Of a stretch of DNA of 64,000 nucleotides, positions 2,408-64,000 are shown piece after piece; position 1 is the first letter of the stretch, and every line of letters starts with the position of its first letter. A program made the position numbers and the translations under genes. The notes under the pieces were generated by a model, which worked only from the letters and a program-made list of their open reading frames with translations, was not told the DNA's origin and did no database searches. Source of the stretch: Eledone cirrhosa (taxonomy: Eukaryota); contig OZ024756.1 of the NCBI GenBank assembly GCA_964016885.1, positions 6,758,001 to 6,822,000 of the forward strand, in the 5' to 3' direction.

Positions 2408-3003
2408 GCTTCATATCAATAATTGCTATAACATTTACACAGAAAGGTTTCAAAGTTTCGCCCTCAAAGCTTATCCTTCATACCAGGAGACAGGACTTAT
2501 ACGATACATGAAACATTATCTCCCTGCGTATCTCTGAGGTTGTTTAACGTGTGTCTATTGATTATGGAAAAATGAAGTGTAGAAAATTCTACAAAGAAAA
2601 AGACAATTGAATGACCAATAATTATTTACAATATCTATCTATCTAGCTATCTATCTCTCTATACATATATCGATCTAGCTGTCGTCTGTTCTACAGTGTG
2701 GATGTAATTCACTTCGCGCAGAAGTTTTGTTCAAATTTATTGCGGAAATTTTGTGAGTTCAAATTTAATTTTGATACGATTGTGTAGCTTGAACCCCCGT
2801 CTGAACTGCCAGGCGGTGGGTCAGCTCATCTTTACCCCTCCTAGAGGTGAAAAACCTGTTTTAAAAAATTTTGTGGCAAAAAAATTTCAATCGTCTAACA
2901 GAAATGTTAAACGCAGCGAACGAAAATAGTGGTGGGGGGACAGCGGTAAGAGTTGTAAGCTCGCACGCTTTAGTGCCCCCCTTCCTTCCCAACAAACGTC
3001 ATA

Positions 3004-4803
3004 GTGAAGGAAGGAAAAATTAAAATAAAAACAGACGAATCTGCGGAGAAAAAAAATGACGAAAACACAAATCTGGACATGGATTCCAACAACGAAAAAA
3101 AAAAATTTGAAAAATTGCATGACAATACTAATAACACAAACAAAGACACAACAAACACAAAAATAACATTTGAAAATAACACCATAACAGAAAGCAAAGC
3201 AGACGACAAGATTTCATTTGCACAGACAACAAAGAAATCTTTGACTTATATACCCGAAAATATTTCAGATGTGGCACGAAGAATCACAGACGCCAAACAA
3301 TACATAAGTGAAGGAGAGAATGGTATTGTATCGGTAAAAATGCCTCAAGAATTCACCAAAGACATTGAAAGCCGAACGGTCAAGTTCCGCACCATCAACA
3401 ACACTACAAACAAACCTGAACAACCTTCTCAAGCAGATATCAAAACAGTACTCACAGAAGTACTTAATGAAACCACTTTCATAAGAAAAGACAGACTGTA
3501 TGGAAGCCTAGCAATTATGATGAAGAACGAATCGGCGGCAAAAAAATGTGCTTTGTCACCGATTCGTTCGAAAAAATTTACCTTTTATCCATCTTATATG
3601 GGAAAAGAACTCAACGCATATGGCTGGATGCAATGATGCCAGATGTGGACTACTGCTGGCTCATAGCTGGCTTCATCGATCCAGTGAATGACAACGTGAT
3701 TTCCATTGGGAAAACCACAGGCAATGCGTTCAGTGGAACAGGTATAGAGCTGGTAGTGCAAATGAAGCCTGAACGCATCGCCCAAATACCCGACAGAATC
3801 CTATTAGAGGGCCACGGGTATATAAACATTAGCGTGGAGGGGAGAAGGCCGTCCTGCCATATCTGTGCAGGCAGAGGGCACCTGAAGGCCGCTTGTCCCC
3901 AACTCAACAAAAAAGAAAACCCTGCTACCAACACCAGCTCCACCACCACCACCACAACAGATAAACAAACAACAAAACTCAGTCCCACCCAACCCGTCCC
4001 TCAGTAAAACCACACCACCACCACAACACAAACAGTCACAACACATTACCCCAAAACAAAATACAGGCCCACCCAACCTCTCACTCAATAAAACAACACA
4101 ACCACCGCAAACACAACACACAACACAGTCTAACATAGTGACATCCATCTCCCCCACAAAGAAAACCAACACGGAAACATTACCAGCAAACATACCTCTT
4201 CCCTCCAACACTGAAGATAACCCAACGAATTCGGAGGAAGAAACGGAGTCCTTCAGACAGATTAAAAGGAAAAAAAGAAAACATGTGCAAAACACACAAG
4301 GCCAAACAACCCCCACCCAAATCTCAACACAATCGAACAAAACAGAAAACACCCCTCCAGCAACAAACAAAACCAAACCTGCCCCTCCCCTCTTCGAAAC
4401 ACTCACACCATCCGAAAAAAAGACATTATACTATACTTACATCAACAGAAACAATAATAAATTAAATGAACTCATAAACAATAATCCTTCGGTACAAACC
4501 GAAGCTGTAAACTTTGTTTCTTCAGAAAACTACCCACATTTAAAATTAATAAAGATCCCCATGAACCTCTACCAAAAACTAAAAAAGGATTTTAAGGAGG
4601 ACGTAGGACCACCCTCTGTCAAACCCATAAACCGCGTCCTACTAAAAAGCTTTCCCCCTCCCCTTCCCCTCTCCAACACAACTCCAAACACCCCAACCCC
4701 ACCACACACTGACGACCCCACACCACCACAAGACACCCCTTCACCCAACACCCCCGACCCCATGGAAGTCGTGCAACCCGAACCCCGGGAAGCGGAAAGG
4801 TAG
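3004..4803 (+). pseudogene. LINE copy 1 ORF1 (nucleic-acid binding, CCHC knuckle), frameshifted
   Basis: ORF pieces 3004-3636, 3546-4007 and 4138-4803 are colinear with ORF1 of copy 2; CHICAGRGHLKAAC fits CX2CX4HX4C; frameshift near 3605 and another around 3950-4010. Confidence 0.85.
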
Positions 4804-4836
4804 GTCTCTACACTCTCCTTTGGCTCTGCTGCCCAC

Positions 4837-7800
4837 ATGGATGTGTTAAGAGTAGGATGGTTGAATGCACGTGGCCTGGGCTCAACTTGGAAGCAAGCAA
4901 AGCTTCTAAATGACCTCAGGTCATGTAGTATAAATGTAATGGTTATCTGTGAGACTCGAATCAGCGTCGTGCGGCAGCTGGCCCCCACCTTCGATGACTT
5001 TGAGGTGCATGCATCTCTCTGTCAACCTGGAGGTGGGGGTGGGGTTGTCGTACTGCTGAAAAAACACCTGGGTCTTGCCGTGCAGGTTGTGCACTCGGAC
5101 CCGGAGGGTCGTTTGTTGGTGCTAGACGTTGGCAGTAGTGAAAGTGCGGCCTTGAGACTGGTCGCCGTCTACTCCCCTTTCGGAGCTGAACGGCCCGACT
5201 TCTTCCAGCGTTTGGAGACTTTTCTGGGAACGTCGCGTTCCCTGCTTCTAGCGGGGGATTGGAATGACATCCTAGATGCTCGTTGGGACTATGCAGGAGC
5301 ATGTCCTAATAGAGGGGGGTGTAACAGCCTCAAGGGGTTACTCGACCGTTTTAACTTGGTCGATAGATATCGACTAGATTTTCCAACTGTGCCTACCTGG
5401 ACTTGGAGAAACCACAGTGGTCAATCTAGATCGTACTTAGATAGATTCTTAGTTAGAAGTAAGGATAGGGACATATTAAGCTGTCCAGAAATGCGCACGG
5501 TTGGCTACACGGATCACAAATTAGTGACCTGCGTAGTCAATCTTGAGAAAACACATAAACAGGGTCCCGGTTACTGGAAACTTAATTTGTCTTTACCGGC
5601 AAAAGAGACTTACAGAAACCGGATTAGCAGATTAGTTAAGGAGAGGTTGACGGGTGCAATCGTCAACAACCGATGGTGGGCATCTCTCAAAAGAGAGATT
5701 AAAACAGAATCAATAAGTTATAGCAAGATGTTAGCTGCCGATAGGAATAGAAACGAGAAAGAATTAACAGGTAAATTAGAAGAGGCAATCAAGAGCGAAG
5801 ATGTGGCCAGAGTGCTGGCTCGAGGACGGCCTTGAACCAGTTTTTCGATGCAAAGCACGAAGGCTGCGTCATTCGAAGTAAAATACGTGCTCTAGGTAAT
5901 GAGGGGGCCAAAGCCGTTGGCTGGGCCCGCGTGACAGAAGCTAAGAGTGGAAATCGATCCACCATCCGGTCTTTGCAAGACGAAGATGGACGGGTGATCC
6001 GGGAGCCTAAGCAGATGTGCGAGGCCTTTCAAAGGCACTTTGCCCGATTGTTCGGGGGAGGCGAGGGTCCGGGCGGGGGCGTGGATTTCGGTCCATACCT
6101 CGACGGCCTGCCGCGTCTCTCGAGCGAAGAGGCAGAGTCCTGCGAGGGATCAATCTCGGCTGATGAGATCGGAGATGCGCTGAGCCAATGCAGCAGACAC
6201 AAATCTCCAGGTCTCGACGGTATACCTTACGAACTTTATTTAGCAATGCTGGTCTTCTTCTCCGAACTCCTCGAAGCGGTCTACTGCAATTGGCGGCAGA
6301 ACGGGAGAATTCCTTGTTCTGTAGCCAAGGGCGTAGTCACGCTGGTGAGGAAGGACGAGAACAAGGGAGATAGTATAAATAATTTTCGGCCCATAAACCT
6401 GCTAAACACAGAGTTAAAGATTTTGGCCAAGGTGTTAGCAAAGAGGTTGGCGCTTGTCGTGGGTGGCCTGGTGGGAGATGCGCAGACATGTGCTATCCCA
6501 TCCAGGTCCATTCACGATAACCTCCACCTCATGCGATACATCATAGAGAGGGTTGGCAACAAACCCGGCTTCGGTGGGGCCCTGATCAACTTGGATCAGT
6601 CTAAGGCCTTCGATAGGGTCGACCATGGTTACCTGGATGCGGTGCTAGCGGCGGCTGGGTTCGGTCCTGTTTTCAGAGGCTGGATCACTGCCTTACATAG
6701 CAACCACATCTGTTCTAGGAACAAGGTGAACGGCTACCTTTCGAAGCCGTTCGAAATCACACGATCCATTCGACAGGGGTGCCCTCTCTCCTCCCTTCTG
6801 TACGTATTGACTCTCGAGCCTTTACTGAGGAAGTTGGAGTTGTTGCAGGGTAACCCCCTGGAACCAGGATTGAGCAAAGCTTTGTCGGCCTACGCCGATG
6901 ACGTAACAGTAATGGTATCGACCGACTCGGAGATCGAGGCGATCGGTACCTTACGAAAGGATTACGAAAGGTTGTCAGGAGCGAAACTGAACCGGGAAAA
7001 ATCCATCGGGCTGCAACTCGGAACGTGGAGAGGCAGACCGATGCCTCCTGACGGTGTTGTCGGTCACTGGACGGAGGGCCCGGTAAAGTTGCTTGGGGTC
7101 TGGTTTGGACCGGACCTCCAGGTGGAAAAGGACTGGATCGAGGTTACGAACAAGGTGTTTGCACTAACCCAGAAATGGGCCAAGTGTAAGCTGTCCCTAA
7201 AAGGCCGGGCGGAGGTGGCGAACATTTACATAGCGTCCGTCACTTACTACCGCCTGACTGTCGTGCCTTGCCCTAAGGAAACACTCACCACCATGGAACG
7301 CATGCTCTTCCAATTTCTTTGGAAGAAGCGCCCTCCTATGGTGAGAAGATCCATCTGCTGCCAACAACCTTCGAAAGGAGGGCTGGGGATTCTGTGGTTG
7401 ATGATGCGTAGGCACGCATTAAGGCTACGGCACCTACAGGTATTCCTCACTGGTCAACCGGTGTGGGCTCCGTTCGTGAAACGAGCCTTTCCGAGACTCG
7501 TCTCGCTCACCGAGCTACAGTCCTGGGTCAAGCAAAGATCCGGAAAACTGGGAGACTTGCACACTGAGTGTGCTCAGGCGCTCAGGGCTCTCTGGCAAGC
7601 GGGCCAGGCCATCGGTGGAGAATCCACCTCATCATTCTATAGAGGGCTGGTGGCTAGCAGGGGCGATGACACCCTTGGAGAGTCGCTGGACATGGAAGAA
7701 GACGAACTGGCCAGCCTGTTCGGTAGGACTTTCAGCCCAGGACCAATGGACAACTTCCAGAAGTCACTGGCCTGGCAGTGCTACCGGGGGGCTCTACCCG

Positions 7801-8273
7801 TTCGAGAGAGGCTCTACAGACACGGGCGCCCGGGCAGGGATCCCTCAAAAAAGATTTGCCCTAGATGCGTGCGTCACGAAGAAACCGTTGCGCACGCATT
7901 GGTGCAATGTCCGGGCGTGGCTGATCTGTGGGGCTACGCCGAACGACTGCTGTCGCGGGTGGCGCCGATTCAATTGACCGCCGAGTCCGTGATGACAATC
8001 AAACCGCCTCCCATCTTCACAAAGGAAGCAAAGGCGGTTTTTCTGTGCGTAATAGCCATGTTGAAAGAGGTTGTTTGGTGGACACAATTGAAAGGTCTGA
8101 GGTCAGGCAACTTCCTCTCTGGCCATAGTCTGGTCTACTTCTTCCGATATCACTTCGGAAGAAGGATAAGAATGGAGAGAGAGGTGCTTGGCCACAGGCA
8201 GTTTTATAAAAGGTGGGTGATAGTGGCGAAAATGGATCGTGTAAATGGGCCTTCTCTGTATACCATCCTGTAG
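4837..8273 (+). pseudogene. LINE copy 1 ORF2: AP endonuclease + reverse transcriptase + C-terminal CCHC, one frameshift near 5820
   Basis: APE motifs LNARGL, ICET, GDWN, YLDRF, TDH; RT motifs KSPGLDG, FRPINLLN, KAFDRV, QGCPLS, YADD; CPRC..ETVAHALVQC. Confidence 0.95.
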
Positions 8274-8502
8274 GTAAAGAAGTAAGGGAGAGGGAGCACC
8301 TTCTCCATGTGCTCCCCGGGCAAAGGATTGCACACTTTTTCGTGGGTGTGTGCAACCCCCATCACGTCCCCTCCCTTTTGAGGTTATTTTCGATTATTTT
8401 CCTGTTACACCCTTTTTACTCGATTGTATGTAAACTCCCCCTTTGTATTTGTCCCTTCTTTTTATGCCTTTATGGTAAATAAAGAAATATATCTATCTAT
8501 AT

Positions 8503-29857: not shown

Positions 29858-30483
29858 ACCCTGAAGGATCACAAATCCAATTTCCGGAATAACCATTCTA
29901 TTCGGCTTATTAACCCTTCTAACTTCTTACTATTAACATTTCTTACTCTACGACACCTAACCTTGCACATAACATCACAGCCTCAAATTTAGCTAAACTA
30001 CCTAGCCGTAGGAACACGTGCAACCCTGTAGCTAGTACTAACTGTAATTGTAGGAATCGGGTTGACCGCCCCCTATCCGGGAAATATCTCTCTAGTAGCA
30101 TTGTCTACAAATGTAAGGTTGAAACACCCACGTCCCGTAGGGCCTACATAGGGTTAACCGTCAATAGATTCAAGCAGCGTCTTTACATGCATACCCATTC
30201 TTTTCGTTACCCTCTAAGAAGGAATATGACGTCACTCTCAGCTTATATCTGGAGTCTAAAAGACAACCACACCCAATATAAGTTACACTGGGAGATCCTA
30301 GCTAGGGCTAGATCGTATAACGGAAATAAAAGACCATGTGACCTCTGCGCCGCCGAGGCCCTGGAAATACTCTATGCCAAAGACCACATCTTAAACAAAA
30401 AATCTGAGGCAATTTCGGCTTGTAAACATAAATTTCACAAAACTTTCCTGTATTACAGCCCCACATTATACCCTAACGGATAG
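29858..30483 (+). pseudogene. Penelope-like element remnant: RT N-terminal motif joined to linker + GIY-YIG endonuclease
   Basis: TLKDHKSNFRNNHSIRLINPS (29858-29920); open frame 29923-30483 with INISYSTTPN, CNCR, SIVYK..AYIGLT..FKQR..H, TSLSAYIW, CDLCAAE, LNKKSE..CKH. Confidence 0.88.
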
Positions 30484-34809: not shown

Positions 34810-35020
34810 ATTTCTACTATAGGCACAAGGTCACACATTTGAAGGGGGGGGGGTCGATTTAATCGATCCCAGTGCATTACTGGTACTTTATGTTATCGAT
34901 CCCGTAAGGATGAAAGGCAAAGCTAACCTCGGCGGGATTTGAACTCAGATCATAAAGGGATGTCACTCTATGCCGCAAATCATGCTGTCCAACGCTCTAC
35001 CGATTCCGCCAATCCACCGC
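34810..35020 (-). mobile_element. tRNA-head SINE (degenerate partial copies also at about 34440-34740)
   Basis: Reverse-complement A/B boxes and core. Confidence 0.85.
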
Positions 35021-36144: not shown

Positions 36145-36740
36145 GGGTTGGCAGAATCTGTAGAGCGTCGGACCCCATGCTTTACAGCATAGACTTCTGG
36201 CCCCTTACATTCAGAGGTTAAATCCCGCTGAGGTTAAAGTTGACTTTAATCCTTACGGGGTCGATAAAATAAAGTACCAGTAATACACTGGTGCGTTTAA
36301 TCAACTTTCCCTTCCTCCAAAATTACAGGCCTTGTGTCTATTGTAGAAATCAGGTGGATTGGCAGTATCGGTAGAGGGTCGGACGCCATGCTTTCCACCA
36401 TAGTTACGTCCCTTTACGATCTGAGTTCAAATCCCGCCGAGGTTGACTTTGCCTTTCATCCTTACGGGGTCGATAAAATAAAAGTACCAGTAATGCACTG
36501 GCTAATTGCTGGCCTTGTGCCTAAAGTAGAAACAATTATTTATATGCAGGGCGGTGGAGTGGCAGTATCGGTAGAGGGTCGGACGCCATGCTTTCCAGCA
36601 TAGAGTTACGTCCCTTTACGGTCTGAGTTCAAATCCTGCCGAGGTTAACTTTCCCTTTCATCCTTACGGGTCGATAAAATAAAGTACCAGTAATGTACTG
36701 GGTTTGTGCTGGCTTTGTGCCAAAAGTAGAAACAATTATT
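36145..36740 (+). mobile_element. Three head-to-tail tRNA-head SINE copies
   Basis: Copies at about 36145-36350, 36352-36540 and 36549-36740. Confidence 0.88.
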
Positions 36741-37521
36741 TATATGCATAAAATAAATATATATCAAATATACGAACGGTTTTATATATACAGTATATAT
36801 ATATGTGTGTGTGTGTATCGTGTGTGTGTGTGTATGTGTGTGTGTGTGTGCGTGTATGCGTATGTGCGTGTGTGTGTGTGTGCGTGTATGCGTATGTGCG
36901 TGTATGCGTGTGCGCGTGTGTGCGTGCGTGTGCGTGTGTGTGTGTGTGTCCGTGTATGCGTGTCTGTGTGTGTGTGCGTGTATGCGTGTGCGCGTGTGTG
37001 TGTGCGTGTATGCGTGTGCGCGGGTGTGTGTGTATGTGTGTGTGTGTGTGCGTGTATGCGTATGTGCGTGTGTGTGTGTGTGCGTGTATGCGTATGTGCG
37101 TGTGTGCGTGTGTGCGTGTATGCGCGTGTGTGTGTGTATAAATGCTACACTCTCACAGCAACATTTCTTGTTTTAAAATTGCTATAATGAGGGATTCTTA
37201 TCCCAGTTATTGAACAAGGATAAGACTTTAGTATTTAGGGTGAGAAGCAGTCATTATCGTGACTTCATAATTAAGATTTGTTGAGCTGTAATAAAACTGT
37301 CATCTATACGGTTCAAAGTTAATAGAGTGGCCACCAAGAAAGCATCCATTTATAAGCCATAAATATCTCCAGACACACCACACATAGTAATATATAGCCT
37401 GGCTTTCATGGATTAGTCATCTAATTAGTAAATAACGAACATACTAGCTTCAAATCTCACATACCAAGTTCAGATCCTTTCCAGGAGAATGACGTCTCCT
37501 AAGAGTCTTATTGTATTTGAT

Positions 37522-40136: not shown

Positions 40137-40250
<114 letters not shown>

Positions 40251-40468
40251 AATTAAGTTAAAGTGTACATCTACATATGTATACGGAAGTATTAGTATGC
40301 ATATAAATACACACATGTATACATATGTACATGTACTCAGCTTTTCACTAGACACTTTACAGTGAGTGTCAGCTAGTCTGTATGTAACCACACAGGCGGA
40401 CCGGGTTTTAGAGTCATACGAGTTTTCAAGGAAACACATTTCCTCTATTCTCCAGAGGGCCACACAGG

Positions 40469-40513
40469 AATATTGGACTAGTTTCGATGTTATTACATCT
40501 CATCAGCAATATT
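40469..40513 (-). ncRNA. Minimal type I hammerhead (repeated at 40938, 41407, 41876, 42345, 42814 and 43283)
   Basis: Minus strand AATATTG-CTGATGA-GATGT AATA ACATC-GAAA-CTAG-TC-CAATATT. Confidence 0.92.
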
Positions 40514-43500
40514 TACCCATCTTCCGGCTTCTCTGGAGAATTGTAAAAGCACATATCGTTATATGCTTTTTCTATGAAAATTAGTAGTGGGTAGACTAAT
40601 TTGCATAGAACGTGAGTCATTGTACGCACCGGTTCAGCGGAAACGATAAAAACAAATAACGAAACGAAATTAAATTTTGTTTCGCTTCTAACTCACTTTT
40701 GTATGACTGACGCTTAAACAATTAAGTTAAAGTGTACATCTACATATGTATACGGAAGTATTAGTATGCATATAAATACACACATGTATACATATGTACA
40801 TGTACTCAGCTTTTCACTAGACACTTTACAGTGAGTGTCAGCTAGTCTGTATGTAACCACACAGGCGGACCGGGTTTTAGAGTCATACGAGTTTTCAAGG
40901 AAACACATTTCCTCTATTCTCCAGAGGGCCACACAGGAATATTGGACTAGTTTCGATGTTATTACATCTCATCAGCAATATTTACCCATCTTCCGGCTTC
41001 TCTGGAGAATTGTAAAAGCACATATCGTTATATGCTTTTTCTATGAAAATTAGTAGTGGGTAGACTAATTTGCATAGAACGTGAGTCATTGTACGCACCG
41101 GTTCAGCGGAAACGATAAAAACAAATAACGAAACGAAATTAAATTTTGTTTCGCTTCTAACTCACTTCTGTATGACTGACGCTTAAACAATTAAGTTAAA
41201 GTGTACATCTACATATGTATACGGAAGTATTAGTATGCATATAAATACACACATGTATACATATGTACATGTACTCAGCTTTTCACTAGACACTTTACAG
41301 TGAGTGTCAGCTAGTCTGTATGTAACCACACAGGCGGACCGGGTTTTAGAGTCATACGAGTTTTCAAGGAAACACATTTCCTCTATTCTCCAGAGGGCCA
41401 CACAGGAATATTGGACTAGTTTCGATGTTATTACATCTCATCAGCAATATTTACCCATCTTCCGGCTTCTCTGGAGAATTGTAAAAGCACATATCGTTAT
41501 ATGCTTTTTCTATGAAAATTAGTAGTGGGTAGACTAATTTGCATAGAACGTGAGTCATTGTACGCACCGGTTCAGCGGAAACGATAAAAACAAATAACGA
41601 AACGAAATTAAATTTTGTTTCGCTTCTAACTCACTTTTGTATGACTGACGCTTAAACAATTAAGTTAAAGTGTACATCTACATATGTATACGGAAGTATT
41701 AGTATGCATATAAATACACACATGTATACATATGTACATGTACTCAGCTTTTCACTAGACACTTTACAGTGAGTGTCAGCTAGTCTGTATGTAACCACAC
41801 AGGCGGACCGGGTTTTAGAGTCATACGAGTTTTCAAGGAAACACATTTCCTCTATTCTCCAGAGGGCCACACAGGAATATTGGACTAGTTTCGATGTTAT
41901 TACATCTCATCAGCAATATTTACCCATCTTCCGGCTTCTCTGGAGAATTGTAAAAGCACATATCGTTATATGCTTTTTCTATGAAAATTAGTAGTGGGTA
42001 GACTAATTTGCATAGAACGTGAGTCATTGTACGCACCGGTTCAGCGGAAACGATAAAAACAAATAACGAAACGAAATTAAATTTTGTTTCGCTTCTAACT
42101 CACTTTTGTATGACTGACGCTTAAACAATTAAGTTAAAGTGTACATCTACATATGTATACGGAAGTATTAGTATGCATATAAATACACACATGTATACAT
42201 ATGTACATGTACTCAGCTTTTCACTAGACACTTTACAGTGAGTGTCAGCTAGTCTGTATGTAACCACACAGGCGGACCGGGTTTTAGAGTCATACGAGTT
42301 TTCAAGGAAACACATTTCCTCTATTCTCCAGAGGGCCACACAGGAATATTGGACTAGTTTCGATGTTATTACATCTCATCAGCAATATTTACCCATCTTC
42401 CGGCTTCTCTGGAGAATTGTAAAAGCACATATCGTTATATGCTTTTTCTATGAAAATTAGTAGTGGGTAGACTAATTTGCATAGAACGTGAGTCATTGTA
42501 CGCACCGGTTCAGCGGAAACGATAAAAACAAATAACGAAACGAAATTAAATTTTGTTTCGCTTCTAACTCACTTTTGTATGACTGACGCTTAAACAATTA
42601 AGTTAAAGTGTACATCTACATATGTATACGGAAGTATTAGTATGCATATAAATACACACATGTATACATATGTACATGTACTCAGCTTTTCACTAGACAC
42701 TTTACAGTGAGTGTCAGCTAGTCTGTATGTAACCACACAGGCGGACCGGGTTTTAGAGTCATACGAGTTTTCAAGGAAACACATTTCCTCTATTCTCCAG
42801 AGGGCCACACAGGAATATTGGACTAGTTTCGATGTTATTACATCTCATCAGCAATATTTACCCATCTTCCGGCTTCTCTGGAGAATTGTAAAAGCACATA
42901 TCGTTATATGCTTTTTCTATGAAAATTAGTAGTGGGTAGACTAATTTGCATAGAACGTGAGTCATTGTACGCACCGGTTCAGCGGAAACGATAAAAACAA
43001 ATAACAAAACGAAATTAAATTTTGTTTCGCTTCTAACTCACTTTTGTATGACTGACGCTTAAACAATTAAGTTAAAGTGTACATCTACATATGTATACGG
43101 AAGTATTAGTATGCATATAAATACACACATGTATACATATGTACATGTACTCAGCTTTTCACTAGACACTTTACAGTGAGTGTCAGCTAGTCTGTATGTA
43201 ACCACACAGGCGGACCGGGTTTTAGAGTCATACGAGTTTTCAAGGAAACACATTTCCTCTATTCTCCAGAGGGCCACACAGGAATATTGGACTAGTTTCG
43301 ATGTTATTACATCTCATCAGCAATATTTACCCATCTTCCGGCTTCTCTGGAGAATTGTAAAAGCACATATCGTTATATGCTTTTTCTATGAAAATTAGTA
43401 GTGGGTAGACTAATTAGCCCTCTGGAGAATAGAGGAAATGTGTTTCCTTGAAAACTCGTATGACTCTAAAACCCGGTCCGCCTGTGTGGTTACATACAGA

Positions 43501-43832
43501 CTAGCTGACACTCACTGTAAAGTGTCTAGTGAAAAGCTGAGTACATGTACATATGTATACATGTGTGTATTTATATGCATACTAATACTTCCGTATACAT
43601 ATGTAGATGTACACTTTAACTTAATTGTTTAAGCGTCAGTCATACAAAAGTGAGTTAGAAGCGAAACAAAATTTAATTTCGTTTCGTTATTTGTTTTTAT
43701 CGTTTCCGCTGAACCGGTGCGTACAATGACTCACGTTCTATGCAAATTAGTCTACCCACTACTAATTTTCATAGAAAAAGCATATAACGATATGTGCTTT
43801 TACAATTCTCCAGAGAAGCCGGAAGATGGGTA

Positions 43833-43877
43833 AATATTGCTGATGAGATGTAATAACATCGAAACTAGTCCAATATT
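43833..43877 (+). ncRNA. Minimal type I hammerhead in the inverted arm
   Basis: AATATTG-CTGATGA-GATGTAATAACATC-GAAA-CTAG-TC-CAATATT; predicted cleavage after 43870. Confidence 0.92.
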
Positions 43878-44162
43878 CCTGTGTGGCCCTCTGGAGAATA
43901 GAGGAAATGTGTTTCCTTGAAAACTCGTATGACTCTAAAACCCGGTCCGCCTGTGTGGTTACATACAGACTAGCTGACACTCACTGTAAAGTGTCTAGTG
44001 AAAAGCTGAGTACATGTACATATGTATACATGTGTGTATTTATATGCATACTAATACTTCCGTATACATATGTAGATGTACACTTTAACTTAATTGTTTA
44101 AGCGTCAGTCATACAAAAGTGAGTTAGAAGCGAAACAAAATTTAATTTCGTTTCGTTATTTG

Positions 44163-44212
<50 letters not shown>

Positions 44213-46824: not shown

Positions 46825-48235
46825 CTATATATACTTTATATACACACTTTATATATACACTTTATATATACACGTTATATATACACTTTATATATACACT
46901 TTATATATATATATACACTTTATATACACATTTTATACGCACATTATATATACACTTTATATATACACTTTATATATACACTTTATATATACACTTTATA
47001 TATATATATACACTTTATATATATACACTTTATATATACACTTTATATATACACTTTATATACACACTTTATATATTACACTTTATATATACACTTTATA
47101 TACACACTTTATATATACACTTTATATATATACACTTTATATATACACTTTATGTATACACTTTTTATACACACTTCATATACACACTTTATATATACAC
47201 TTTATATATATACACTTTATATATACACTTTATATATACACTTTATATTCACACTTCATATACACACTTTATATACACACTTTAGATACACACTTTATAT
47301 ATACACTTTAGATACACACTTTATATATACACTTTATATATACACTTTATATGCAGACTTTATATATACACTCTTTATATATGCACACTTTATATATACA
47401 CTCTTTATATATACACTTTATACACTCTTTATATAACACTTTATACACACTTTATATATACAAACTTTATATACACACTTTATATATACACTTTATATAT
47501 ACACTTTATATACACACTTTATATACACACTTTATATACACACTTTATCTACACACGTTATATACACACTTCATAAACACTTTATATACACACTTTATAT
47601 ATACACTTTATATATACACACTGTTTATATATTGTATATATACACTTTATATATACACTTTATATATACACTTTATATACACACTTTATATACATTTTAT
47701 ATATACACACTTTATACACACTTTATATATACACTTTATATATACACACTTTCTACACACTTTATATACACACTTTATACATACACTTTATATATACATT
47801 TTATATATATACACTTTATATATACACCCTTTATATATACACCCTTTATATATACACACTTTCTATATACACACTTTATATATACACACTTTATACATAC
47901 ACACTTTATATACACACTTTATATATACACTCTTTATACACACACACTTTATATATACACACTTTATACACATACACTTTATACACACTTTATACACACA
48001 CACTTTATACACACTTTATATATACAACTTTATACATACACACTTTATACACACTTTATATATACACACTTTATATGTCATACACTTTATACACACTTTA
48101 TACATACACACTTTATACACACACACTTTATACACACTTTATATATACACACTTTATACATACACACTTTATATACACACACTTTATACACACTTTATAT
48201 ATACACACTTTATATATACACACTTTATGCACACA
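46825..48235. repeat. Degenerate (TATATACACTT)n satellite
   Basis: Direct reading. Confidence 0.9.
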
Positions 48236-48690
48236 TTTGTGTATTATAGTCACGTGATCATATCACAAGTGAGGTAACAAGAAAGGACCATGTCAACAGT
48301 GTTATCCTAATAAGATGTCCCTACCCCCCGGGGTCTTAACCCCACCCCACCCCCCTCATAGATATCTACCTTATTACCATTAATACTTGTACAGTCTTCA
48401 GTCTAAGCATGACGCAGGTTATCTCCCTTCTCGTCTCCACTTCAACAAAGGGGTGTGCCTCCCCCCTTTTCACTCCTACATATAAGTGTACCAGGCATAC
48501 AGACAGACGGACAAATAGCTCTTCTTTTATAATATAGATTGAGTACACGTCTTTTCTAAGTGAGAATACCTATTTCGAAGTGAGCACTTGCCACTTAGAA
48601 TAAGAACATATCACATCAAAGTGAGAAGGGCGATTTCAAAGTGATCTCAACAAGACTTAAACTTTATTTAATTAACCAAAAGTAAATAAT

Positions 48691-48872
48691 TGTTTCTACT
48701 TTAGGCACAAGGCCAGCAATTACCCAGTGCATTACTGGTACTTTATTTTATCGACCCCGTAAGGATGAAAGGCAAAGTCAACCTCGGCGGGATTTGAACT
48801 CAGATCGTAAAGGGACGTAACTATGCTGGAAAGCATGGCGTCCGACCCTCTACCGATACTGCCAATCTACCG
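48691..48872 (-). mobile_element. tRNA-head SINE with perfect 16-bp TSD
   Basis: TSD ACCAAAAGTAAATAAT at 48675-48690 and 48873-48888; A/B boxes intact. Confidence 0.93.
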
Positions 48873-49060
48873 ACCAAAAGTAAATAATACATGGGCACAA
48901 GACTTTGTCAGCTGGAGAATGCGATGTTATAAGCAAAACAAAAGAAAAAACACCTTTTAATTCATAGTTATAATAGTTCACGAAGAGATTGCTATTGCCA
49001 CCTGAAGTATTATGTCCATCTTTGAAGTGACAGGCTTCACCTTTAACCCTTTAGCATTTA

Positions 49061-50545
49061 CATTACTCAATATATACTATTGTATTTTCACAGTAAAGGC
49101 TTTACCTCACATAATATCTCACATAGCATTTACATTACCCCTTGTATCTGTCCCTACCTTTTGTGCCCTAGTGGCAAATAAAGAAACCACTCTATGTATA
49201 CTATTGTATTTTCACAGTAAAGTCTTTACCTCACATAATACCTCACATAGCATTTACATTACTTTATATATACTATTGTATTTTCACAGTAAAGGCTTTA
49301 CCTCACATAATATCTCACATAACATTTACATTACATTATATATACTATTGTATTTTCACAGTAAAGGCTTTACCTCACATAATATCTCACATAGCATTTC
49401 CATTACTCTATATATACTATTGCATTTTCACAGTAAAGTCTTTACCTCACATAATATCTCACATAACTTTTACACTACTCTATATATACTATTGTATTTT
49501 CACAGTAAAGGCTTTACCTCACATAATATCTCACATAGCATTTCCATTACTCTATATATACTATTGCATTTTCACAGTAAATACTTTACCTCACATAACA
49601 TCTCACATAACATTTACATTACTCTATATATACTATTGTATTTTCACAGTAAAGGCTTTACCTCACATAATATCTCACATAACATTTACATTACATTATA
49701 TATACTATTGTATTTTCACAGTAAAGGCTTTACCTCACTTAATATCTCACATAGCATTTCCATTACTCTATATATACTATTGCATTTTCACAGTAAAGTC
49801 TTTACCTCACATAATACCTCACATAACATTTACACTACTCTATATATACTATTGTATTTTCACAGTAAAGGCTTTACCTCACATAATATCTCACATAGCA
49901 TTTCCATTACTCTATATATACTATTGCATTTTCACAGTAAAGTATTTACCTCACATAATATCTCATATAACATTTACATTACTCTATATATACTATTGCA
50001 TTTTCACAGTAAATACTTTACCTCACATAACATCTCACATAACATTTACATTACTCTATATATACTATTGTATTTTCACAGTAAAGACTTTACCTCACAT
50101 AACATCTCACATAACATTTACATTACTCTATATATACTATTGTATTTTCACAGTAAATGCTTTACCTCACATAACATCTCACATAACATTTACATTACTC
50201 TATATATACTATTGTATTTTCACAGTAAATGCTTTACCTCACATAACATCTCACATAACATTTACATTACTCTATATATACTATGGTATTTTCATAGCAA
50301 AGGCTTTATTTCACATAATATATCACATAACATTTACATTACTTTATATATACTATTGTATTTTCACAGTAAAGTCTTTACCTCACATATCTCACATAAC
50401 ATTTACATTACTCTATATATACTATTGTATTTTCATGGTAAAGGCTTTACCTCACATAACATCTCACATAACATTTACATTACTCTATATATACTATTGT
50501 ATTTTCATGGTAAAGGCTTTACCTCACATAATATCTCACATAACA
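49061..50545. repeat. 72-bp tandem satellite (about 20 units; resumes at 56197-56320)
   Basis: Unit CACAGTAAAGGCTTTACCTCACATAATATCTCACATAACATTTACATTACTCTATATATACTATTGTATTTT. Confidence 0.95.
49138..49188 (+). mobile_element. 51-bp 5'-truncated copy of the 3' end of LINE copy 2
   Basis: Identical to 56146-56196 (CCCCTTGTATCTGTCCCTACCTTTTGTGCCCTAGTGGCAAATAAAGAAACC). Confidence 0.9.
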
Positions 50546-50757
50546 ACTCGTATACGAGAGACGTGTGTTGACGTATGTGAACAAGCTCGGCTACCGAGTC
50601 GGATTTACTTACTCAAAAGTGAGTTTTGATAAAAAAATTTTATACTGTAATATACGTTAACCCCTTGCCTTGGTCGTCAAACTTTGAGTTTATTTATTTT
50701 CGCCCCTTTTTGGGGCGAATTTTCCAGTTAAAAATTTATTACGGCAAACTAATAGAA

Positions 50758-52500
50758 ATGGACGGAATTTTCACATCTCATCCTAACGTGAAAGCCACGC
50801 CCCCTAAGAAAGGTGATACAGAGAAGCTAGAAGCACAAGGCTCTAAGTCTTCCCTCCTCACTTCTGCAAAAGAAACATGGAACACGGAATTAAAAGAAAA
50901 ATTTGTAAAAATGGGTGAAAACCCAGAAAGTCACATAAACGCAGACAAAAACAACAACGACAATAACAGCAATAGTCACAACACCAACCAAGGAAAAAAT
51001 AACGATAACACCAAACAAAGCGAACCCACTACTGGTGCCTCCTTTGCACAGGCGGACGGAAAACACAGACCTGCAAGCAACTGGACATTACAACTCTGAG
51101 AGAAAAGATGAAGGAAGCAAAACAGTATGTAACTTTCAAAGAAGGAGGAGACTACACAATCACCTCCCCACAAGAAATCAAAAGAGACACGACACTAAGA
51201 ACGATATCTTTCAGAACAATTTCCAACATAACAAGGAAACCAGCTCAATTTTCCCAAAAAGAAATTGAGCTGGTCCTAAAAAATGTGTGGAGGGATATAT
51301 CGTTCATACAAAAAGGGCCACTCTATGGGAATATAACGGTGCTTATGAAGGATCAATTGACGGCCAGGAAATACTCTGTGGCGCCAATTGTTTCCAAGCT
51401 ACACACATTTTTCCCCACATATTTAGGGAAAAGAACGCAGAAAATAAGGGTCTCCGGAATCCGGCCAAATGCATGCATTTCCTGGGTACTAACAGGATTT
51501 TTAGAAGACGAGGACGGAATCCTCTCAGTAGGAGAAGTCACAACAGAAGTTTTCGGCGGTTTGAGCGTGGAGGTTCTGGTCCAAATGAGACCAGAACGAA
51601 TAGCTAGAATACCACAGAGGGTGTCCCTCGATGGAGAAACATTTATATACATTTCAGCCGAGGGTAGGAGGCCCATATGTTACTACTGTTCAAGCAGGGG
51701 TCATCTAAGGGCTACCTGTCCTCAATTGACAAAAAAAAGGCTCTTTTGCCTACACCCCACACACCACCACCGCCGCCACCACCACCTCCACCACCACCAC
51801 CACCACCACCACCACAACAACAACAAAAACAACACGGAAAAATAACACACACACGGCCCCACCCAAAACAAGTCCAAAAACACACACAAACACAACAAAA
51901 CCCCAAAATACACCACTACCCGACAGCACGGACGAGGACCCAGCTGAAACGGCACCTAGTGACGAAGAGGGGGGACCCTTCCAACCTGTAAAAAGGAAAA
52001 AAAGAAAGCACCATTCGAACATAAACGAAACAAACACACAACCACCAACAAAAACAAAACAAACAGAACAAACAAAATCCGCCCCACCCCAAAACATAAC
52101 ACATACAACAAAACGTAAGCACACACAAGAACAACAAACAAACACAACACAAATAAAACAGTATACATACATTAACACAAATAACAAAGAACTAGTAAAA
52201 ACAATACACAAAGACCCTTCGGTGGAAACTGAAGGGCAATTCTTTGCAAGCGCGGCCAACAAACTGCATTTTAAAATGATAAGACTCCCAATGGACACCT
52301 ATGCAAAACTAAGAGAGAACTTTCCTGAGGATGTGGGGAAAACATGTACTCGACCCTATAACCGCGTCCTCTTGAAACGTTTCCCCACCCACACCTCACC
52401 AAACACCCCCAATCCGCCACAGAACAACACCCCACCAAACAACCCCTCCAATACGCCCATGGATATTGTGCAACCTGCTCCTCAGGAGCCGAACAGGTAG
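50758..52500 (+). pseudogene. LINE copy 2 ORF1, several frameshifts
   Basis: CYYCSSRGHLRATC knuckle; blocks LGKRTQ, VQMRPERIA, NRVLLK.FP and PMDIVQP match copy 1. Confidence 0.85.
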
Positions 52501-52521
52501 GTCCTTCCTCTTTTAACCAAC

Positions 52522-55500
52522 ATGGCTGATATAAGATTTGGGTGTCTGAATGTACGCGGCCTGGGACTGTCTTGGAAACAAGGCAAACTTTTAAACGATC
52601 TCAGGTCGCATAGAATGGATGTAATGGCTATTTGCGAGTCCAGGATCAGCAGCCAGCACCAACTGGCGCCCCTCTTCGACGACTTTGAGATCTTCGCATC
52701 TCTCTGTCAACCGGGGGGTGGGGGTAGAGTTGTCATTCTGCTGCGAAAACACCTGGGCCTCGCCATACAGAAGGTGCACCTGGACCCGGAGGGTCGACTG
52801 GTGGTTTTAGACGTCGGCAGTCGTGAAAGTGGAGCCCTTAGACTAATAGCTGTGTACGCCCCTTTTTGGGCAGCACGGCCGGAATACTTCCAACGTCTGG
52901 AAACTTTTCTGGGAACGTCCCGCTCCTTGCTTTTAGTGGGGGACTGGAATGGTATCCGGGATGCACGTTGGGACTATGTAGGGGCATGTGCCAATAGAGG
53001 GGGGTGTAAAAGCCTCAAAAGGTTAATCGGCCGATTTGAACTGGCTGATAGATATCGACTAGATTTTCCGACTGTACCACTATGGACGTGGACCAATCGC
53101 AGCGGAACATCTAGGTCGTACCTAGATAGGGTTCTAGTTAGAGAGAAGGATAGGGACACATTTAGCTGTCCAAAATTGTTCATGGTTGACTATTCGGATC
53201 ACAAGTTAGTGACCTGCATAGCCAACCTTGATAGAACCCATAGACAGGGACCCTGTTACTGGAAGCTGAACTTGTCCTTACCGACAAGCAAAGCTTACAG
53301 TAAACGGATTAGCACGTTAGTTAAGCAGAGTTTGACAGGGGCAATTGTCAACAACAGGTGGTGGAGCTCTCTTAAGAGAGCAATTAGAATAGAATCGATA
53401 GGTTTTAGTCAGGAATTAGCAAGGGATAGGAACAAGACGGAAAGGGAATTAGTAGATAGAGTAGAAGAGGCGATTAGGAGTGGCAATGTAGCCGGCGTGC
53501 TGGCATCAAGAATAGCCTTAGACCAGTTATTTGAGGTGAAGCATGAAGGCTGCGTTGTCAGAAGTAAAATACGTGCTCTGGGTAATGAGGGAGCCAAAGC
53601 TGTGAGCTGGGCCCGAGTGACAGAGGTAAAAAGTGGGAACAAGTCCACAATTCGGTCTTTGAAGGACCAGGATGGGCGTGTGATCCTTGAACCTGGGCAG
53701 ATGTGTGCGGCCTTTCAGCGGCACTTTGCACGACTGTTCGAGAGGGGCGGCGCGCCGGGTGAGACTATGGATTTCAATCCATACCTCGACGGCCTGCTGC
53801 GCCTCTCGGACGCGGAGGCGAAGTCCTGCGAAAGGACGATTTCAGCTGCTGAGATAGGGGCGGCGCTGAGCCAATGCGGCAAACGCAAATCCCCGGGTCT
53901 CGATGGTCTACCATACGAGCTATATGTAGTGATGCCGGACTTGTTCTCCGATATCCTCGAAGCGGTCTACTGCAACTGGCAGCAGAACGGCAGAATTCCC
54001 AGTTCTGTGACCAAGGGCGTAGTTACGCTGGTGAGGAAGGATGAGAACAAGGGGGATGACATAAGTAACTTCAGGCCCATAACTCTGCTAAATACAGAGT
54101 TAAAGATTTTGGCCAAGGTGTTAGCGAAGAGGTTGGCGCTTGTCGTCGGAAACCTGGTGGGAGAAGCGCAGACATGCGCAATCCCGTCCAGGTCCATTCA
54201 CGACAATCTCCACCTTATGTGATACATCATAGAGAGGGTAGGGAATGAACCCGGCTTTGGTGGGGCCCTGATCAACTTGGATCAATCTAAAGCTTTCGAT
54301 AGGGTTGACCATCGTTACCTGGATGCGGTGCTCGCGGCGGCAGGCTTCGGACCCGTTTTCAGGGGTTGGATTACTGCGATGCACAGCAGCAACGTCTGCT
54401 CAAGGGTCAAGGTGAACGGCCACCTCTCGGAGCCGTTCCAAATCATGCAATCCATCCGACAGGGATGCCCTCTCTCCTCCCTTCTGTATGTGCTGGCTCT
54501 TGAGCCACTACTGCGGAAGTTGGAGCGGTTGCAGGGCACCCCTTTGGAAACGGGATTGCAGAAAGCGGCGTCGGCCTACGCCGATGACGTGACAGTAATG
54601 GTGTCGAAAACCTCGCAAATCGGTGAGATCGGCACCTTACTGGAGGAATATGAAAGGTTTACAGGAGCCAAGCTGAACCGGGACAAGTCCGTCGGTTTGC
54701 AACTCGGAACATGGAGAGGCAAACCGATGCCCTCCAGTGACGTCGTCGGACGCTGGACGGAGGGCCCGGTGAAGCTGCTTGGGGTCTGGTTCGGACCAGA
54801 CCTCCAGGTGGAGAAAAACTGGAACGAGGTAATGGCCAGGGTGTTTGCACTCACCCAGAAGTGGGCCCAGTGCAAACTATCCCTGAAAGGTCGAGCGGAG
54901 GTGGCGAATACTTATATAGCATCCGTCATCTACTACCGCTTGACCGTCGTGCCTTGCCCAGTGAAAAGACTCGCCAAAATGGAGTGCGCGCTGTTCCAAT
55001 TTCTTTAGAACAAGCGGACCCCTTTGGTGAGGAGATCCATCTGCTGTCAACACCCTTCGAAAGGAGGGCTGGGGATGCCGTGGCTACAGATGCGTAAACA
55101 CGCATTAAGGCTACGGCACCTCCAGGTATTCCTCACCGGTCAACCGGTGTGGGCCCCGTTTGTGAGGCGAGCCTTTCCCAGACTCGTCTCGCTCACCGAG
55201 CTGCAATCCTGGGTCAAGCAAAGACCGAGAAAAGTAGGCGACTGGCACATTGAATGTGCCCAGGCGCTCACGGCCCTCTGGAAAGCGGACCCGGCAATCA
55301 GTGGAGACTCCACCTCGACATTCTATAGAGGGTTGGTACGCAGCAGGTGCGACGATGCTCTCGGAGAAGCTCTAGGCATGGAGGAAGATGAACTGGCCAG
55401 TCTGTTCGGTAGGACGTTTGGCCCTGGACCGATGGACAACTTCCAAAAGTCCCTGGCTTGGCAGTGCTACTGAGGGGCTCTACCCGTTCGAGACAAGCTC

Positions 55501-55959
55501 CACAGGCATGGGAGCCTGGGTAGGGATCCTTTGAATAAGATCTGTCCGAGATGCGTGCATGACGACGAAACCGTTTCGCACGCATTCGTACACTGCCCAG
55601 GCATTGCTGACCTGTGGGGCTATGTGGAACGACTACTGTCGAGGGTGGGACCAATCCGGTTGACCACCGAGTCCATTGTCACGATGAAACCACCTCCCCG
55701 TTTCAAAAACCAAGGAGAGGCGGTTTTTCTCTGTGTGATAGCCATGGCTAAAGAAGTTGTATGGTGGACGAGGCTGAAAGGGCTGAGGTCAGACACCTTT
55801 CTCTCCGGCCAACAACTGGTCCCCTTTTTCAAATACCATTTTAAAAGAAGAATCAGAATGGAGAGAGAGGTGCTCTACCCCAGCAAGTTTTATGAAAGGT
55901 GGGTGAAAGTAGGGAGAATGGCCAGAGTGAATGGGTCTTCTCTCTATATCAGCCTGTAG
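52522..55959 (+). pseudogene. LINE copy 2 ORF2 (APE-RT-CCHC) with three in-frame stops
   Basis: Pieces all in one frame; stops ending at 54222, 55008 and 55473; motifs GDWN, SDH, QGCPLS, YADD, CPRC..H...C. Confidence 0.95.
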
Positions 55960-56787
55960 GTGAAAGAAGAGGAAAAAGAGGAGACGAGGGAAGCACCTAC
56001 TCTTTGTGCTCCTAAGGAGAAGGGTTGCACATTTTTTCCGGGGTGTGCGCGACCCATGTTAATGCCCCCTCCCTATTGAGGACTTCGTTTGTTGTTGTTA
56101 TTTCATTGTTATATTTTTGTACTCGTTAATTATATGTAAACTTCCCCCCTTGTATCTGTCCCTACCTTTTGTGCCCTAGTGGCAAATAAAGAAACCACTC
56201 TATATATACTATTGTATTTTCATGGTAAAAGCTTTACCTCACATAATATCTCACATAACATTTACATTACTCTATATATACTTTTGTATTTTCATAGCAA
56301 AGGCTTTATTTCTCATAATCATCTGACATAATATCGAATTTAAGATATTTTGATATTATATGTTTGGAGAATAATACTTTAACATCAGTATGAGCGGCCG
56401 TTTACGACCAAATTGAACAGAAAGAGGTGAGAGAATTTTGGCTAGATATGACCTGTTTAAATGCTAAAGGGTTAAAAAGCTATTCTCGCTTTGAAAAGAC
56501 ATGAACTCACTTAGAACTCTAAAGGTAGTTGCTATAGAGGTTGTAATCGCATTCGTCCCGATAGAGCTTAGAGGTTAAATTGACAAGATAAGATAACAAA
56601 TTGCAGTAAAGTATTAACTCAATATATAGCCTCTATATAGGTAGAGCTGATCGTTGGTAATCCTATTCAGATAAAGACCATTTTCGGCTTAGATTTAGGA
56701 ATAGAAATCACTTAAAGGGAGTATGAAAGTAAAAATCACAAATCATCCGTTGAGCAGCAGAGAACGCGGTAATATTTGTTTGATTGG

Positions 56788-56965
56788 TGGTCTGGCAGTA
56801 TCGGTGGAGCGTCAGACACCATACTTTGCGGCATGGTTATGGCCCTTTGCGTTCTGAGTTCAAATCCGCCGAGTTTAACTTTTCCTTTCATCCTTACGAG
56901 GTCAATAAAATAAAGTATCAGTGATGCACTGGGGTAATCGCTCGCCTTATGCCAAAAGCAGAAAC
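56788..56965 (+). mobile_element. tRNA-head SINE
   Basis: A/B boxes and core. Confidence 0.8.
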
Positions 56966-57782
56966 TTAAATAAAGAAAGATATCTTGAAGAGCTATTTTC
57001 TGAGTGAGGGCAATACATTTCTGAAAGGAACTTGCTGTGGTAGTTATTATTTTACACAAGAAAAAGTGTAATTATTTTGTCATATTATACTTCAACATAC
57101 TTCGTGGCTTTATAAAGAAACTACAAGGAGTTTTATAGTCATTTAAATGTATATATTCGAAGAAAAAAAGAAGAAATAATTTGATCAAATTATTCAGCTG
57201 TTACATTTGACGAAGAAAGCTCATGGCAGCTAGAGTCTGCGACTCAGTTTCTGTTACCATTTGTATTGAAGTTCAGTGTTGTGCGAAACACAATTATTCC
57301 AGTAAGCCAAGAAGATCACGGCAGACATTTCACTTCTTAAACAAACAGTTCTGAAATACGACAAGGTATAAACAGTAGAGCGACGAAAGGAGAAATATAT
57401 GGTTGATAGTATAGAAGCTCTGGCGTCCATTTACATCCTGAGATAAAATCTTGTGAAGCTCTACTTAGCTATCTTCTCCCACCACGGGAGGTCGATAACA
57501 TAAATTAACACTGAACGGGATTTAATCCAATACCCTGTTCCTCTTTAAAGTTAAAGCCTCCATTTGGATGAAGTTAAAGTTGAGTCGGGTTTGGGGGGTG
57601 GGCGTTCGAGACTGAAGTGTTGTAGTGGTACTATCTAAGATATTTGGTCATATCTTATACATGAGATTTGAAGAGGATAAGCAACTAACTGATCAAGAAT
57701 GAACTGTTTTTTGGTCGTGAAAAAAAGCTTAGGTTTGGGGGTTTGGAAAGTAGTTTGGCAATGTTCTCTATATTAGAGGTCA

Positions 57783-63259: not shown

Positions 63260-63318
<59 letters not shown>

Positions 63319-63323
<5 letters not shown>

Positions 63324-63851
63324 AAATAACGAAACGAAATTAAATTTCGTTTCGCTTCTAACTCACTTTTGTATGACTGACGCTTAAACAATTAAGTTAA
63401 AGTGTACATCTACATATGTATACGGAAGTACTAGTATGCATATAAATACACACATGTATACATATGTACATGTACCGAGTTTTTCACTAGACACTTTACA
63501 GTGAGTGTCCAGCTAGTCTGTATGTAAACAAACAGACGAACCGGGTTTTAAAGTCATACGAGTGTTCAAGGAAACACACTTCCTCTATTCTCCAGAGAGC
63601 CAGACAGGAATATTGGACTAGTTTCGATGTTATTACATCTCATCAGCAATATTTACCTATCTTCCGGCTTCTCTGGAGAATTGTAAAAGCACATATCGTT
63701 ATATGCTTTTTCTATGAAAATCAGTAGTGGGCAGACTAACTTGCATAGAACGTGAGTCATTGTACGCGCCGGTTCAGCGGAAACGATAAAAACAAATAAC
63801 GAAACGAAATTAAATTTCGTTTCGCTTCTAACTCACTTTTGTATGACTGAC
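63319..63851 (-). mobile_element. Dispersed diverged 1.1-mer of the 469-bp unit; hammerhead at 63609-63653
   Basis: Same unit with scattered substitutions, about 62-bp terminal redundancy, hammerhead unchanged. Confidence 0.9.
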
Positions 63852-64000
63852 ACTCATACACACACACACACATATATACACATATATATGTGTATATAAA
63901 TACACATATACACATACATATACACATACATACATACGCACATAAATATCAACACATCCATACATACACATATACAACCACACACACATATATACACACA

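Follow-up and report, generated by a model that had tools for sequence, protein, structure and literature searches.

A Tx1-like LINE and a 51-bp copy of its 3' end at one register of a satellite inside a piggyBac-type MITE of the octopod Eledone cirrhosa

The Tx1L element of Xenopus laevis, a long interspersed nuclear element (LINE), reportedly inserts into the internal tandem repeats of the transposon Tx1D, as is said to follow from work by Garrett in 1989 and Christensen in 2000. The Tx1 clade is described as one of the three main groups of target-specific LINEs (PMC4640811), and Tx1 families preferring non-autonomous DNA transposons are described from Xenopus and several crocodilian lineages (PMC4494074). 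In the same paper, Kojima 2015, Xenopus Tx1 elements are placed in the non-autonomous piggyBac element Tx1D, microsatellites and satellites are given as further targets, and Mariner, Harbinger and long terminal repeat (LTR) elements are named as targets of crocodilian families. A LINE is treated there as target-specific when more than 20% of its flanks, truncated copies counted, are of one repeat type, and truncated copies in the target serve as the accepted test that excludes hitch-hiking (PMC4494074). The endonuclease of Tx1L is sequence-specific and its bB6-bB5 loop carries an RDGH extension (PMC1950540). For Octopus vulgaris, an annotation gives 13 L1-Tx1 families, whose 421 recently active insertions cover 2.29 Mb (PMC13282606). 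Here we analysed a stretch of 64,000 nucleotides from the octopod Eledone cirrhosa (contig OZ024756.1 of assembly GCA_964016885.1, positions 6,758,001 to 6,822,000; hereafter the window), in which a full-length Tx1-like LINE lies within a 72-bp satellite array, itself enclosed by the ends of a piggyBac-type miniature inverted-repeat transposable element (MITE).

The whole TTAA-flanked element spans 49043-56475 (7.4 kb). An earlier note on this DNA, made from the letters alone, had read it as a Tx1-type LINE inserted twice at one register of a satellite inside a piggyBac-type MITE of an invertebrate, and this layout is borne out in its parts. They are as follows, together with a sister LINE elsewhere in the window (TIR, terminal inverted repeat; ORF, open reading frame; UTR, untranslated region; TRF, Tandem Repeats Finder).

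49043..49046, no strand: left TTAA target-site duplication of the MITE (from the sequence)
49047..49060, + strand: left 14-bp TIR, CCCT-type, a piggyBac hallmark as described in PMC2872659 (terminus comparison)
49065..50545, + strand: 72-bp satellite, about 20 units (TRF, unit comparison)
49138..49188, + strand: the last 51 bp of the LINE at its 3' end, probably inserted in 5'-truncated form (junction comparison)
50546..56196, + strand: full-length Tx1-like LINE, dead copy (sequence, ORFs, domains, junctions)
50758..52500, + strand: ORF1 of the LINE, split over three frames, with a CX2CX4HX4C zinc knuckle (ORF list)
52522..55959, + strand: ORF2 of the LINE, 1145 codons, with apurinic/apyrimidinic (AP) endonuclease, reverse transcriptase (RT) and zf-RVT (domain search)
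55960..56196, + strand: 3' UTR of the LINE (from the sequence)
56197..56331, + strand: 1.9 satellite units, the last being the MITE's own subterminal copy (TRF, unit comparison)
56332..56457, + strand: non-coding body of the MITE (from the sequence)
56458..56475, - strand: right TIR (56458-56471) and TTAA (56472-56475) (terminus comparison, read ends)
2690..8487, + strand: sister Tx1-like LINE subfamily with an approximate 5' boundary, within a (TATC)n/(TA)n tract (sequence comparison)

The short piece at 49138-49188 is identical in all 51 letters to the LINE 3' end at 56146-56196, and both 3' ends stop directly before ACTCTAT of a satellite unit. At the 5' junction of the full LINE 8 bp of the satellite unit are missing, whereas the 51-bp piece shows no target deletion, its 5' junction having 1-2 letters in common with the target. 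The exact 5' boundary of the full LINE is ambiguous by up to 4 bp, because its first four letters equal the first four of the downstream target. The unit downstream of the 51-bp piece and the one downstream of the full LINE differ at 7 of 72 sites, and a 'TG' unit variant, seen in 3 of the 22 units printed, stands on both sides of the full LINE. Two independent insertions would hit one register of the 72-bp unit with a chance of 1 in 72, while a random breakpoint would fall within 2 bp of that register in about 7% of cases. Judged by these junctions, the 51-bp piece is more simply read as a 5'-truncated insertion independent of the full LINE.

The association of the LINE with the satellite reaches beyond the window locus. 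Four sequencing runs (X1, X2, X4 and X9) of 11 were compared with 50500-56780, for which the listings gave 24 pieces (of 117,753), 15 joints (of 950) and 24 loose ends (of 5,129); no listed piece covers the whole of the TTAA-flanked composite, and contig depth is a rough guide to copy number only. In run X1, which bears another organism label and belongs to another study, 2 pieces among the 8 listed extend across a LINE end, and in each case they enter the satellite. The contig across the 5' junction (50517-51118, depth 10.2) holds 29 satellite letters and the identical 8-bp loss, with 8 differences over 603 letters besides 3 gaps of one letter each, all of which fall within the LINE, and the contig across the 3' junction (55881-56218, depth 12.2) holds 22 satellite letters, with 2 differences in 338. 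Since these depths match those of the other ORF1 contigs of X1 (9-11) and the unique flank has depth 0, the two contigs probably come from another locus than that of the window, although zero flank depth alone proves nothing. All three observed 3' junctions (two in the window and the X1 contig at body depth) lie in the satellite, as do both full-length 5' junctions read by letter (window and X1).

Moreover, the LINE family is young and high-copy, since ORF1 in run X4 lies at about 370-420 times the depth of the unique flank with a divergence of 1.1%. The unique-flank contig has 0 differences and a depth of 5.31. Five ORF1 contigs have depths of 1959-2244 and show, over 1081 letters, 12 differences from the window. 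The ORF1-to-flank ratio is 369-423, from which the X4 copies may be put roughly at 200-400, all young. One X4 contig covers 50575 at depth 1952, and the closer of its two ends is 44 letters off; because a length variant near 50614 places that end rightward, the contig extends upstream past the LINE start by 14 letters or more. From this position, rather than from the letters themselves, it can be deduced that most full-length X4 copies have upstream letters in common. Within ORF1, run X2 gave only a more diverged relative, with 25 differences in 206. In run X9, a restriction-site-associated DNA (RAD) library, the LINE ends are uninformative (depth 9-51 at 55960-56169), and 36,964 molecules are piled at 51472-51727 between GCATGC and AATT sites. 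A degenerate pattern of the LINE 3' end had 0 matches in metagenome contigs; a related-locus pattern had 4 metagenome matches, none of which was confirmed, and no related loci were found in viral contigs.

The window copy itself is dead, because ORF2 contains three stop codons (codons 567, 829 and 984, the endonuclease portion being free of stops) and ORF1 is spread over three frames. In runs X4 and X1, ORF1 has an additional base near 51055. ORF2 matched PF03372, PF00078 and PF13966 in Pfam, the last under the cut-off in the broken piece, and its best relative of solved structure is human L1 ORF2p (E 6e-49), with which the catalytic motifs align and to which the bB6-bB5 loop of the endonuclease aligns gap-free. 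The ORF1 knuckle CX2CX4HX4C is present in both this LINE and the sister LINE; ORF1 resembles zf-CCHC and ZCCHC3-RBD clusters (Atlas leads, 0.90-0.92), and no zf-CCHC/ZCCHC3-type match to it appeared in the Pfam search. The LINE opens with a perfect 12-bp palindrome (50547-50558) and closes with a short A-rich end without poly(A). No structured RNA or ribozyme was found at its ends (fold z -0.94 and +0.90), and an Rfam search of 48500-57500 up to E 1 gave no match.

As for the host element, the TTAA and TIR of the two ends match in 18 of 18 letters, both 14-bp TIRs being perfect, and with up to 3 mismatches allowed the 64 kb contain no further match. The MITE has TTAA on both sides, a TIR length within 12-19 bp, a TIR start of CC[C/T]T and sharply bounded copies at dispersed sites, in agreement with the hallmarks of piggyBac/TTAA MITEs described for the coral CMITE (12-19-bp TIRs with CC[C/T]T, TTAA target-site duplication; PMC2872659), which the octopod MITE resembles in both respects. 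The MITE is dispersed in the genome, because 2359 loose read ends leave at 56475 with unlike flanks (agreement 0.39), making the right boundary sharp, and because the joint of the left TIR to the unit, at 56197, is present in all four runs (in X9, 1407 reads from 133 starts). An internally deleted variant of the MITE body was found in X2 and X9, and a one-unit version would measure 229 bp, both TTAA included. TRF reported 18.9 copies of the 72-bp unit at 49189-50545 and 1.9 at 56197-56331, a single further unit lies at 49065-49136, and a 360-bp higher-order repeat is discernible from the unit variants. The array is a tandem amplification of the left subterminal 72 bp of the MITE itself, because inner TIR sequence is included in the unit and the final unit passes into the MITE body. 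This resembles Xmix/Xstir of Xenopus, in which an internal segment of a MITE was amplified into tandem repeats (PMC6004289); Xmix, however, has Kolobok-type AGGRR ends, and a Kolobok assignment of the octopod MITE is ruled out, as its ends are CCCT and not AG/AGGRR (PMC6004289). Matches of the TIR pattern elsewhere (L001-L003, one viral and two prokaryotic) were of 18-25 letters without the MITE body and were rejected as chance.

The sister LINE at 2690-8487 provides a view of the target from a second subfamily. Its ORF2 is 80% identical in nucleotides and its RT 82% identical in amino acids to those of the LINE in the satellite, the endonuclease domains, free of interruption in both (52522-53250 in the satellite LINE, 4837-5570 in the sister), are identical at 177 of 241 residues (73%), and 3 of the 9 residues of the bB6-bB5 loop are changed. 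The sister LINE has frameshifts in its ORF1 and also at a point separating its endonuclease from its RT. The 3' flank of the sister LINE agrees with 9 of the 10 letters of the TCTAT.TATA motif (TCTATATATA) at an unchanged offset. This suggests that the target may be a short motif, or that a satellite preference grew from one. In the window, TCTAT[AC]TATA occurs 16 times inside the MITE and 11 times outside, while ACTCTATATATAC occurs 16 times inside and 0 times outside.

The locus is probably best explained by independent, target-primed insertions of a LINE that prefers the satellite. The MITE has dispersed, and the 72 bp at its left end have been amplified in tandem; the AP endonuclease would then nick at CATT/ACTCTAT, yielding the constant 3' junction that is seen. 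Full-length RNA would begin in the upstream satellite, so that its cDNA could anneal to the target and leave a fixed junction minus 8 bp, whereas 5'-truncated cDNA would join by microhomology without deletion. For this RNA-carried target there is a model in R1A of the Drosophila melanogaster type, in which a precise target deletion of 9 bp is found in 75% of the full-length copies and target-site duplications in the truncated ones, the deletion being put down to target sequence that the RNA carries from upstream (PMC2718515); in R2, upstream target RNA is likewise tied to uniform junctions (PMC3774820). R1A, a site-specific LINE, is of the AP endonuclease type like the octopod LINE, and its full-length and truncated copies show the split between deletion and its absence, but it belongs to the R1 clade and targets 28S rDNA, and the parallel is mechanistic only. 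By this analogy, and granted the nick at the constant register, we lean slightly towards RNA-carried target sequence as the source of the split. The specificity may descend from a preference for TCTAT.TATA microsatellites that the sister subfamily, seen in one copy, has kept. The composite may now and then have transposed as a whole, though the explanation does not require it. Several observations weigh against independent insertion into the satellite. The 5' junctions are weaker evidence than they seem, since the LINE would take a satellite leader on its RNA along to whatever site it enters, and a shared 5' junction is also expected from copying of the whole composite. The real test lies in the 3' junctions, of which there are three, and the truncated copy seen is a single one. 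In addition, none of the 24 loose ends listed of 5,129 falls at either LINE terminus, X1 may hold few copies, and in X4 the depth at the 5' end is about 75% of that of the 3' UTR (1952 against 2577-2595), a high full-length share that also suits copying at the DNA level. The presence of TCTAT[AC]TATA outside the MITE counts on the same side.

This last point belongs to an explanation in which the endonuclease reads only TCTAT.TATA-like DNA, common at microsatellite edges, so that the satellite is merely rich in the motif and the 5' junction was carried on RNA from a master copy. The flank of the sister LINE, the similarity of the two endonucleases and the fact that R1A takes 7-28 bp of its upstream target along when it enters other sites (PMC2718515) all agree with it, but the three 3' junctions of the subfamily run on into the satellite, that of X1 for 22 letters, and ACTCTATATATAC is confined to the MITE in the window, which makes a short motif alone unlikely. 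Of what the earlier note had inferred, the association with the satellite stands beyond this locus through the X1 junctions, while strict specificity for the satellite over the TCTAT.TATA motif, and the travel as a composite transposon that the note had held possible, are no more than possibilities. A second rival, improbable to a very similar degree, is composite multiplication of the kind once considered for Xenopus Tx1C: after a single LINE insertion into the MITE, or a small number of them, further copies would have arisen through transposition as a piggyBac element or through unequal crossing-over within the array. The intact TIRs and TTAA around the 7.4-kb unit, the uniform 5' junction, the full-length share and the near-identity of the copies would suit such hitch-hiking, which leaves unexplained a second, truncated insertion at the shared register with another junction and another neighbouring unit; the joint of the 51-bp junction is also absent among the 15 joints listed of 950, though single-contig joints of depth 124-940 were kept, which speaks weakly against it. 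Finally, the 51-bp piece could be a remnant of local duplication and deletion, as the earlier note had itself allowed, or a gene-conversion tract, in which case the locus would record one insertion. The array does display local duplications and the piece is identical to the LINE end, but such identity is expected anyway because the family is only about 1% diverged; and since the neighbouring units are unlike at 7 of 72 sites and the piece also retains the 8 target letters that the full copy lost, this origin is disfavoured and, with the small chance of a breakpoint so near the register, very unlikely. Independent insertion with a preference for the satellite remains the more probable reading.

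In its manner of working the octopod LINE resembles Tx1L in Tx1D without being Tx1L itself, and the strategy is already known from frogs and crocodilians. Tx1L makes a target-site duplication of about 23 bp, whereas the full-length octopod LINE has an 8-bp target deletion. The RDGH extension of the bB6-bB5 loop is missing and the loop is of L1 length, so that neither the extended loop nor the long duplication of Tx1L proper is found, while an arrangement like that of Tx1C, a LINE within the internal tandem repeats of a TIR element, is present. The octopod repeat unit differs in being 72 bp long and taken from the MITE's own end. The likeness to Tx1L in Tx1D (Tx1C) is that of an AP endonuclease-type LINE inside a non-autonomous piggyBac family (PMC4494074). 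Among the crocodilian Tx1 families, Tx1-Mar, Tx1-9_AMi and the microsatellite-directed Tx1 (Kibi/Koshi group) are related but have different targets, preferring Mariner-N4, Harbinger, LTR elements or microsatellites, and they are vertebrate and old, the copies of Tx1-Mar being 85-87% identical to their consensus (PMC4494074) against the divergence of about 1% in the octopod LINE. In the literature, Repbase and Dfam not covered, we found no mollusc case of a transposon-targeting Tx1 and no report of the 72-bp satellite.

The name Tx1-like rests on architecture and characters of the clade, not on phylogeny, because the RT tree contains no reference Tx1 or L1. A Gag-like ORF1 with a CCHC zinc knuckle is a feature of the Tx1 clade, and it is seen in both window copies, as is, in the LINE under study, an ORF2 with AP endonuclease, RT and a C-terminal zinc motif. 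The tree holds 38 RTs (1 of 39 candidates was dropped as too short), among them neither Tx1L nor another named Tx1 or L1. The two window copies, one NCBI protein and the closest named relative, from Argonauta hians (63-64% identity, in keeping with an octopod host), form a group of 4 with 100% ultrafast bootstrap, sister to 11 proteins in a group of 15 rows that also has 100%. RT identity to named proteins of fish, turtle and lancelet is 37-41%, and no Tx1 or L1 clade name occurs among the protein-cluster labels of the relatives. The LINE is probably an octopod lineage separate from Tx1L. Among the relatives, ten near-identical proteins of Coilia grayii (P0188, P0243-P0251) have neighbouring locus tags on one contig, which suggests a tandem array of a Tx1-like LINE.

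Other repeats surround the MITE in the window. A SINE-like repeat (short interspersed nuclear element) of 140-200 bp and 74-84% identity has eleven matches, the query included, three of them in tandem, and one copy lies on either side of the MITE; no tRNA call was obtained on it. Its matches are listed below.

2258-2394, 17814, 27143, 34442, 34812-35011, 36149-36748, 48724-48864, 56793-56932 and 57789: matches of the SINE-like repeat

At 46833-48228, 800 bp left of the MITE, there is a 13-bp minisatellite of about 105 copies. The element at 40246-44169 lies between two (TA)n tracts and consists of 469-bp units, 6.8 direct and then about 1.6 inverted copies that are 99.5-100% identical; it has the look of a foldback or TIR element of very recent origin in which one arm underwent tandem amplification, and a stretch at 63290-63943 is 91% related to it. 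A 186-codon ORF at 29923-30483 has a YIG-like motif, which we take to be reminiscent of the Penelope GIY-YIG endonuclease, and had no Pfam match.

It is possible, though we put it forward only tentatively, that an octopod LINE evolved the strategy of Tx1L and Tx1D independently and recently, a subfamily having moved from TCTA/TA microsatellites to a MITE-born satellite with a shared TCTAT.TATA core by way of few endonuclease changes, such as those in the bB6-bB5 loop. The satellite would then be both a landing pad and a 5' leader or promoter for hundreds of copies of a parasite of a parasite. In the satellite, TATATATA is located 60 bp ahead of the LINE 5' junction, and that it drives transcription of the LINE is speculation. 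Two LINE subfamilies whose endonucleases are 73% identical and whose targets differ around a common core motif would form a natural pair for studying the origin of AP endonuclease specificity, the gain of which is of interest for retrotransposon-based gene insertion. The finding would bring transposon-targeting Tx1 elements to molluscs, repeat the junction pattern of R1A in another clade, and aid the annotation of the young, high-copy part of octopus genomes.

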